Shown in pieces: positions 6,407-7,783 of a stretch of 64,000 bases of DNA. The number at the start of each line of letters is the position of its first letter. Position 1 is the first letter of the stretch. Origin of the DNA: Schmidtea nova (Eukaryota). The DNA lies in the NCBI GenBank assembly GCA_044892505.1, contig CM097882.1:321966001-322030000 (forward strand), given 5' to 3'. The notes beneath the pieces are model-generated. The model had not been told where the DNA came from. It worked only from the letters and a program-made list of their open reading frames with translations, and made no database searches. A program made the position numbers and the translations under genes.

Positions 6407-7783
6407 TTACGCCAACCATCCTTTTCTGTCTGTTTTCTCATGCCTCTCCATCTCTATGTATAGCGTGTCTGCATATAGTCGCTCCCATAGGTTTTCCTTC
6501 CTTATAAACATTGGTTCTCCTGCTGCTAGTCCGCATTCTGTTGTTGGTTTTTCGCTCGTACTCGAATGTTTGTCTGTTTCAAAGAACTTTTCTACTGGTT
6601 TTCCCATACTTTTGATTCTGATAATGACTCCTATTTTCAAGGGCCATTCTATTAGGTCATCGTATTCTCCTTTACATAGTGAGAAGAATATTGACACGTG
6701 TGTTCCTTGTCCTCTTCCGTCTCCATTTGGGTATACTTTCAATCTTATTTTAACCCCGTTTTTCCATAAATAAAATGGTGGGCTTATTACTGCTGTTTTC
6801 GTCATATTTCTGGCTTCTGCTAATTTGTCTCTGAAATCTGTTACTTTCCATAGGTAAGGTGCGATTGGTAAGTCCCTTCTTTCGTCAATTTCTCGTATTA
6901 ATTGATTATATTGTATTTTCATTCCTTTTCCTAATTCTTCTATGGCTATTATTTTCTTTTCCATTCTTTCGCGAGTTAGTTCAAACTGCTCTCTTGTTTC
7001 TAGTAGTAAACTCATCATTATCTTATGTGATTCTACTTCTTTTTCTAATTTCTGGATTGTCTGTTTCGTTTCTTTTGTCGTTTCGTTTGTCATTTCCACA
7101 TGCGTTAGTGCTGCTTCTTCTAGGTGTTGTTTCATTGATTGCCGCGTCCGCTTTTCTTTGCATCCCTGTTTGTTATATGGACATTCTATTGGTCTTTCGG
7201 TACATACTTTCCAATGTTCATGTAACTTTACTTCTTCTGTTAATTCGCAATTGTTTGGACATTTACTTACATATTGTCTGCATACTTTCTCCTCTGTTAT
7301 ATTCAAGTGTTCCTCTTCGATTTTTCTCCTTGTTTCTCGAGTTTCACAATACTCGCATGCGATTTCTTCTTCTTTACATTCTTCCTTGTGCTGTTCTCTC
7401 TTCTTTAGAATTATTGTCTGTTGGCACTTCTCGCATTCGGTTCTTTTCTCCTCGCACTTTTCCATATGGTTTTCTAGATTACTTATTTGTCCTTGCCATG
7501 TACAAGGTGTATTTACGCACTCCGTTGTGGTGCTCATAATTTCTCTTTGGGTTGCTTTGTCCGTTCTGGTTTCGTCCAACGCTATTCCTCCTTCTTTACA
7601 TTCTGGGCATGTTGTTATTCCGGTGGTATCTAATTCTTGTATACATTTTGTACATATTCTACATCCACATATCGTTTGTCTGGGTTCTCGTAATAAATTG
7701 TTACACTTCCCGCATGTGAGCCTCTTACTCCATTTTCTGTTTTCTAATCTCAAAATTTCGATGATTCGTTCTTCTCTGTCCAT
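6407..7783 (-). CDS. TRAF: Full-length intronless TRAF-family protein (RING, TRAF zinc fingers, coiled coil, MATH)
   Basis: RING CGKC..LREPRQTICGCRICTKC..CPEC; zinc fingers such as CVNTPCTWQGQISNLENHMEKC and CPYNKQGCKEKRTRQSMKQHLE; MATH YLWKVTDF..SPPFY..KIRLKVYPNGDGRGQGTHVSIFF..GEYDDLIEWP. Confidence 0.95.
   Translation of the reverse strand: MDREERIIEILRLENRKWSKRLTCGKCNNLLREPRQTICGCRICTKCIQELDTTGITTCPECKEGGIALDETRTDKATQREIMSTTTECVNTPCTWQGQISNLENHMEKCEEKRTECEKCQQTIILKKREQHKEECKEEEIACEYCETRETRRKIEEEHLNITEEKVCRQYVSKCPNNCELTEEVKLHEHWKVCTERPIECPYNKQGCKEKRTRQSMKQHLEEAALTHVEMTNETTKETKQTIQKLEKEVESHKIMMSLLLETREQFELTRERMEKKIIAIEELGKGMKIQYNQLIREIDERRDLPIAPYLWKVTDFRDKLAEARNMTKTAVISPPFYLWKNGVKIRLKVYPNGDGRGQGTHVSIFFSLCKGEYDDLIEWPLKIGVIIRIKSMGKPVEKFFETDKHSSTSEKPTTECGLAAGEPMFIRKENLWERLYADTLYIEMERHEKTDRKGWLA

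Follow-up and report, generated by a model that had tools for sequence, protein, structure and literature searches.

A complete intronless TRAF gene within a Burro-type retrotransposon of Schmidtea nova

The retroelement and its genes

The window (the whole stretch of 64,000 nucleotides of Schmidtea nova DNA that was analysed) contains a retroelement of about 29.9 kb with an internal region of 23.4 kb. Its principal features, in the order in which the element would be read, are the following.

27776..31014, minus strand: 5′ LTR of about 3.24 kb, beginning with TG at 31014 and probably ending at the CA before the primer-binding site (repeat comparison)
27752..27769, minus strand: 18-mer starting with TGG, resembling a primer-binding site (sequence)
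26985..27446, minus strand: upstream accessory ORF of 153 aa with a C-terminal C3HC4 RING (Pfam zf-C3HC4_3, 1e-11)
25892..26566, no strand assigned: 32-bp and 29-bp tandem repeats in the leader (repeat scan)
8358..24821, minus strand: polyprotein of 5,487 aa from the first Met, the frame being open from 25340 (Pfam, folds)
7877..8233, minus strand: downstream cistron 1, 118 aa, coiled-coil-like, without a family (ORF and Pfam)
6407..7783, minus strand: downstream cistron 2 of four, the TRAF ORF, a single exon (translation, Pfam, AlphaFold2, Foldseek)
5233..6294, minus strand: downstream cistron 3, an intact coiled coil of 353 aa without a family (ORF and Pfam)
4588..5157, minus strand: downstream cistron 4, intact, 189 aa, with a hydrophobic N-terminus and one transmembrane segment, without a family (ORF and segments)
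1163..4383, minus strand: 3′ LTR, truncated by a gap of Ns and equal to the 5′ LTR over 3222 bp (repeat comparison)

The paired LTRs and the order of protease, reverse transcriptase, RNase H and integrase identify a Ty3/Gypsy LTR retrotransposon. The direct repeats (1163-4384 and 27794-31015) have no mismatches over 3222 bp, so that the insertion is very recent unless the assembly has collapsed to some degree, to which the identity could be partly due. Because the left LTR enters a gap of 768 Ns (395-1162) that cuts into it, its outer end and the target-site duplication are hidden. The 18-mer resembles a primer-binding site of the tRNA-Pro type; the 64-kb window has no tRNA gene for comparison, and no classic polypurine tract was found just before the 3′ LTR.

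Each LTR also holds ORFs of 159 and 198 aa (29506-29027 and 28840-28244 on the minus strand, with copies at 2875-2396 and 2209-1613) that have no Pfam family, are preceded by TATAG(A)ATG and differ in codon usage from the rest of the element. The insertion is at an ATT microsatellite (31014-31067), next to a DUF5641 fragment (32459-32794) that is presumably of Bel/Pao type. Inverted copies of another repeat, 94% identical, lie at 1-394 and 62748-63135, one of them adjoining the gap at the far end of the element. Elsewhere in the window are proteasome-subunit homology in two overlapping frames (34295-35100, plus strand; Pfam 3e-9 and 2e-17), possibly a broken retrocopy; a Tigger/pogo-type transposase (51872-52900, plus strand); pieces of a Tc1-type transposase (57255-58063, minus strand); and a reverse transcriptase fragment (58438-60707) between 700-bp inverted repeats that are 97.6% identical.

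The polyprotein comprises Retrotrans_gag, three CCHC knuckles, a Monjiviricetes fusion protein, protease, reverse transcriptase, RNase H, integrase and ankyrin repeats. The fusion protein (Monjiviricetes_fusion 3e-71, aa 2099-2439; Pfam) stands as an in-frame Env, with gag ahead of it and the protease (aa 2626-2716) after it. A ubiquitin-like stretch is weak (Ubiquitin_4, E 0.077), and Pfam finds no BIR domain in the element. A putative Bcl-2-like domain ahead of Env is weakly supported: Pfam, phmmer and Atlas were all blank by sequence, and in a low-confidence model of the stretch (pLDDT 48) the Bcl-2 family accounts for 38 of the 39 Foldseek rows listed, all with E values of at least 0.14. 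Beyond the integrase, the polyprotein runs on for ~1,800 aa (about 11900-8358) with ankyrins, repeated Fn3-like modules and transmembrane segments, and this part looks like a receptor ectodomain cassette. The 153-aa ORF directly after the primer-binding site has a RING in the style of IAP or MDM2 and is a second candidate E3 of the element.

Giant Gypsy elements of Schmidtea mediterranea have been described as Burro or GYPSM1 (Jurka 2007 and Grohme 2018, through PMC6431247), with copies in the thousands and with MATH_TRAF_C among their motifs (PMC6431247). By its anatomy, compared with the published description of Burro rather than with Burro sequences, the present element is of the Burro type. 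It has in common with Burro/GYPSM1 a length of about 30 kb, a giant polyprotein of ~5,000 aa, an internal region of up to 25 kb, Gag, three CCHC knuckles, an in-frame mononegavirus-like Env, the PR-RT-RH-IN order, ankyrins, tandem repeats and TRAF-type MATH cargo, whereas the counterparts of the ubiquitin-like and Bcl-2-like domains of Burro/GYPSM1 match weakly. Cistron 3 may correspond to the 'Smc' motif recorded in Burro. In Burro1 the MATH domain is inside ORF1 (4,873 aa), whereas here the polyprotein of 5,487 aa has no MATH domain and a complete TRAF is encoded by a separate downstream cistron. A Burro-like element of Dugesia (Girardia) tigrina likewise has MATH_TRAF_C in an accessory ORF outside ORF1 (PMC6431247), but that ORF is upstream, MATH alone is named in it and the element has two knuckles, whereas here the TRAF is downstream and full-length, there are three knuckles, and it is a RING protein that the upstream accessory ORF encodes.

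Since MATH_TRAF_C was already recorded as Burro cargo in PMC6431247, TRAF-type cargo in Burro is not new. No description of a complete RING-to-MATH TRAF in Burro was found in the available text of the literature searched, and the extended figures of Grohme 2018 may show one (Burro2-4). A fusion of TRAF to gag-pol in the databases was considered and rejected, none of 164 homologs having matched the polyprotein or the accessory ORFs; a search for longer TRAF proteins gave nine, eight of them multi-MATH and none with reverse transcriptase domains listed, a weak negative.

The TRAF protein and its RING

The TRAF ORF reads from an ATG at 7783 to a TAA ending at 6407 as a single frame of 458 aa without stops or frameshifts. 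When the 4-kb accessory region was shuffled 1000 times, the longest ORF to arise was 157 codons, and no shuffle reached 458. Its domains are the following.

7598..7714, minus strand: RING domain, C4C4, with the CGC codons from 7669 and with Lys26 and Asn28 at the Ile/Leu positions of TRAF6 (alignment)
7100..7519, minus strand: five TRAF-type zinc fingers, aa 89-228 (Pfam and ligand positions)
6881..7111, minus strand: TRAF-N coiled coil, aa 225-301 (helix in the AlphaFold2 model)
6443..6856, minus strand: MATH or TRAF-C domain, aa 310-447 (Pfam and Foldseek)

The original prediction of a TRAF gene that is intronless, intact in all its domains and carried inside a retroelement is thus borne out by the one continuous frame, by the full domain set (Pfam, AlphaFold2), and by the position of the gene between the 3222-bp direct repeats on the same strand as gag-pol. 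It is the only TRAF copy in the 64-kb window (tblastn).

With MATH, coiled coil, RING and zinc fingers all present, the protein belongs to the TRAF family (TRAF2-6 type). Pfam recognises MATH_2 (1e-20, above the cut-off), TRAF-mep_MATH (2e-19) and zf-TRAF (1e-8), and weakly TRAF3_RING (0.033, below the cut-off). The RING ligands are eight out of eight Cys (24, 27, 39, 41, 44, 47, 59 and 62), with the spacing of TRAF2, TRAF5 and TRAF6, and the fingers (aa 89-110, 117-136, 143-168, 175-194 and 201-228) are of C2HC or C2H2 type. The AlphaFold2 model (100-row alignment) has a mean pLDDT of 93.4, above 90 over most of the 77-residue coiled-coil helix, and a pTM of 0.52, a value expected because the multi-domain chain is elongated. 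Its best Foldseek matches are the TRAF domains of TRAF3, TRAF1, TRAF5 and TRAF2 (E 1e-17) and the N-terminal domain of TRAF6 (1e-11), and the peptide-groove motifs of its MATH domain are similar to those of TRAF3. Metazoan TRAF2, TRAF3 and TRAF5, the best PDB matches, share with it the succession of RING, five zinc fingers, coiled coil and MATH and likewise have no Ile/Leu pair of the TRAF6 type, but the element TRAF differs from them in its C4C4 RING, its identity of about 25-29% and its single exon.

The CGC motif (TGT GGA TGT from 7669) aligns to the CGH of TRAF2, TRAF5 and TRAF6, which confirms the predicted replacement of the RING His by Cys; the fourth ligand is Cys41, outside the C3HC4/C3HC3D pattern. 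Homologs were taken as the best 150 of 6438 matches (E<=0.001 among 1.84 billion representatives), nine others and the query, 160 in all, of which the 129 proteins of up to 660 aa were aligned and the 31 longer ones left out. Among the homologs listed, the His column has 78 His, 25 Cys, 15 other residues and 10 gaps; with Cys in 25 of 118 scorable homologs, His is not family-defining in practice. The query falls within a clade of 24 rows (support 0.95 by FastTree with 129 rows, SH-aLRT 97 in a subset of 54), and its 23 relatives there have 19 Cys, one Phe, three gaps and no His, as compared with Cys in six of 98 scorable rows outside the clade. Of seven TRAF transcripts of D. japonica, the three that cover the RING read by eye as CGC, CGS and CGH, the CGC being that of the published host transcript comp14413 (PMC4795655), and comp4190 reads by eye like the subclade of P0029, P0021 and P0025, a likeness that ties the clade to planarian host genes.

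Cys in 19 of 20 scorable relatives and in a host transcript led to the rejection of an element-specific lesion, and the suggestion that CGC is an activity-altering peculiarity of the element is not upheld; most likely it was inherited rather than made in the element, as a family trait. Cys still binds zinc at a RING ligand position, and the C4C4 RINGs of Not4 and TMEM129 are E3s. The His-to-Cys change is probably near-neutral.

A difference on the E2-facing side would be more telling for activity than CGC. The CPICL of TRAF6 aligns to CGKCN in the element TRAF, where Lys26 and Asn28 replace the E2-binding Ile/Leu pair, which are presumably I72 and L74 of TRAF6. The substitutions I72D/L74H weaken the binding of Ubc13 by TRAF6 (PMC5634496). 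TRAF2 and TRAF5 also lack a pair of the TRAF6 type; TRAF5 alone has diminished activity and forms active heterodimers with TRAF6 (PMC5702613). The RING linker Arg seems to be kept as R80, if the equivalence is right. Position 28 is Leu in none of 21 rows of the clade, and since the pair is absent clade-wide, its loss shows no decoy adaptation of the element. The CGC ring, too, is better studied as a question about the flatworm lineage than about the element.

The downstream cassette and its expression

The four downstream cistrons are separated from the polyprotein and from each other by short spacers.

8234..8357, minus strand: spacer 1, 124 nt, with TGTAAATA at 8343 and 8331 and TAGAA before the next ATG (motif scan)
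7784..7876, minus strand: spacer 2, upstream of TRAF, 93 nt, with TGTAAATA at 7858, three AATAAA and TAGAAA before the TRAF ATG
6295..6406, minus strand: spacer 3, downstream of TRAF, 112 nt, with TGTAAATA at 6391 overlapping AATAAA and TAGAA before the next ATG
5158..5232, minus strand: spacer 4, 75 nt, with TGTAAATA at 5216 overlapping AATAAA and AAGAA before the next ATG

TGTAAATA is the sole 8-mer common to the four spacers, any common 8-mer having appeared in 33 of 5000 shuffles. In all four it is 14-18 nt past the upstream stop and 59-110 nt from the downstream ATG. Within the 23.4-kb internal region, the 404 nt of the spacers contain every sense-strand copy, five in all, and have none on the other strand; the motif does not recur behind the last cistron, the RING ORF or the LTR ORFs. 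AATAAA is found in three spacers and not in spacer 1. AG with zero to three A, a pattern chosen post hoc, precedes the ATG at four of four cistron starts (joint shuffle probability 5e-4); AG(A)nATG is found at six of seven accessory starts, as compared with 86 among all 587 ATGs. The cistrons, 75-124 nt apart on one strand, are within the 300 bp or less between same-strand cistrons that defines flatworm operons (PMC12582326), and planarians have spliced-leader trans-splicing (PMC10899757).

This operon-like layout suggests internal polyadenylation with splicing, perhaps trans-splicing, of the four cistrons, and the mode of expression favoured from the sequence is internal 3′-end formation combined with a splice acceptor, in trans or in cis. 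It is possible, on the unlikely side, that the spacers are instead small internal promoters or that TGTAAATA is a PUF/Pumilio element of 3′ untranslated regions. TGTAAATA presumably fits both the forkhead and the Pumilio consensus sequences, one spacer is without AATAAA, the fourth acceptor (AAAAG) has no pyrimidine tract, and an AUG supplied by a leader would be in frame for TRAF only among the four cistrons; yet TGTAAATA keeps its distance from upstream stops rather than from downstream ATGs, is confined to the sense strand in the spacers, and is missing behind the last cistron, for which the LTR is available.

A candidate spliced-leader RNA gene in the LTR (1361-1400, plus strand, with a copy at 27992) was rejected, its likeness being not above chance. 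The published leader (PMC10899757, Fig. S6) gives a 12-mer with three mismatches near 1361-1400, one of 29 such matches where 31.8 are expected, and the intron part of that leader is absent from the LTR site; folding of the region is within what shuffled sequence gives (z 0.8), and an Rfam scan of 25300-31100 gave no credible match. Among the papers listed in a literature search, none described a cassette of this kind for an LTR element. Exact poly(A) and acceptor sites can be predicted from the spacers, and long-read and PIWI-knockdown RNA data that already exist could confirm or discard them.

Function and the planarian TRAF repertoire

The sense strand of the TRAF gene is 45% A, with 55% A at third codon positions, as compared with 35% A and 36% T in the window outside the element. 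Its codon usage is that of the polyprotein (RSCU r=0.94; the two LTR ORFs score 0.06-0.10), a shared bias that marks it as long-resident in the element. The best full-length relative among the homologs listed (P0014) is 35% identical, and despite this divergence all 28 zinc ligands are kept.

With moderate confidence, the captured host TRAF may be regarded as an established accessory gene of the Burro-type element, an adaptor or decoy that tunes host death or immune signalling. An ancestor of the element would have taken up the spliced mRNA of a flatworm-lineage TRAF that already had CGC, and the gene would have been kept intact until it was recoded to the A-rich codon bias of the element. It would probably have its own mRNA, released from the long element transcript by 3′-end formation at an internal signal behind each cistron and by splicing to an acceptor ahead of each start. 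Most likely the protein forms trimers and binds TRAF-interaction peptides via MATH; as a TRAF2/3/5-like adaptor or decoy mixing with host TRAFs, it would shift death or immune signalling, in a pro- or anti-apoptotic direction, in favour of the element-bearing cell, alongside the Bcl-2-like, ankyrin and second RING products of the element. TRAF-binding motifs were sought in the element's own proteins and show no excess (PxQx[TS] 0 versus 1.3 expected in the polyprotein), so that the partners are probably those of the host. A comparable case is ORF111L of the megalocytivirus ISKNV, a viral TRAF that binds TRADD and drives apoptosis (PMC3352826): it and the TRAF-like proteins of giant viruses are likewise captured TRAFs of selfish elements that modulate death signalling, but they belong to DNA viruses, the iridovirus models matched are shorter (206-296 aa), and the captures were presumably independent.

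The protein is probably not a self-sufficient ligase of the TRAF6 K63 type. That it is nevertheless an active E3 itself, working through an E2 other than Ubc13 or through heterodimers on host restriction or signalling proteins, is rather unlikely: the complete RING-ZF1 module with its linker, the high-confidence AlphaFold2 fold, the precedent of Not4 and TMEM129 and the second RING ORF of the element would suit such a role, but both E2-facing positions are Lys/Asn, as in TRAF2 and TRAF5 and unlike TRAF6. Very unlikely is a recently transduced retrocopy, silent and without function for the element. The matching codon usage, the retention of every zinc ligand at 35% identity to the nearest full-length relative, and the spacer signals held in common with three neighbouring cistrons all argue against such a passenger, for which it can be said that the gene sits 3′ of a 16.5-kb ORF, beyond the reach of ordinary scanning ribosomes.

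Planarian host TRAFs control cell survival (PMC7586133), and the family is indeed reported as expanded, with 121 MATH domains (PMC6109357) and 282 contigs (PMC7586133); the significance of the expansion is called unsettled in PMC8807557. The original prediction that part of it may be retroelement cargo annotated as host genes stands in part. The host radiation (Smed-TRAF-2A/B, D. japonica transcripts) is by similarity in the same clade as the element TRAF and has CGC in one transcript, but the element TRAF differs in its A-rich coding strand, its protein rich in K/E/R/T and its position inside LTRs. A subclade (96) of the query, P0014, P0027, P0039 and P0129 has a skew of K/E/R/T over F/L/S/Y of 0.23-0.31, versus -0.03 to 0.13 in the other 19 rows of the clade, and in three of its five rows MATH is missing or there are gaps and off-frame tails as in decayed copies; since the five fail the composition test, their grouping may be partly compositional. 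On this proxy, five of 24 lineages are element-like, the rows being 50%-identity clusters without genomic context, so that lineages rather than copies are counted; cargo would contribute, and most TRAF diversity looks host-encoded. With Burro in thousands of copies, the share of gene models could differ from five in 24.

That most of the expansion is misannotated cargo is quite unlikely. Burro is numerous and carries MATH (PMC6431247), and TRAF zinc-finger and ankyrin domains are over-represented among piRNA targets (PMC6824462), both being types of Burro cargo, but 19 of the 24 rows have host-like composition, two planarian TRAFs are essential host genes (PMC7586133), the piRNAs of traf-6 are SMEDWI-3-specific and sense-biased, unlike transposon piRNAs (PMC6824462), and the seven D. 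japonica TRAF transcripts are AT-balanced by eye. A literature link between Burro and the expansion was not found, a soft negative with Grohme 2018 and the Repbase report outside its scope; the available text of the planarian TRAF study PMC7586133 has no mention of transposons, retroelements or Burro, and PMC8532177 and PMC11410931 have none of TRAF.

A stronger combination is unlikely: that the cassette is a true operon, with internal polyadenylation and trans-splicing of the host spliced leader, that its TRAF is a dominant modulator of death or immunity, and that a sizeable share of planarian 'traf' models and of TRAF/ankyrin piRNA targets comes from such cassettes. If it were true, a retrotransposon would express a virus-like anti-host module through the trans-splicing machinery of flatworms. 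Burro has been proposed to meddle with host apoptosis and ubiquitination, a proposal never put to the test (PMC6431247), and a stand-alone intact TRAF, which can be handled separately in cloning, assays and knockdown, makes that idea testable. Where a planarian annotation has a TRAF model without introns, the gene may belong to an element, and the A-skew of the strand would be a cheap flag.
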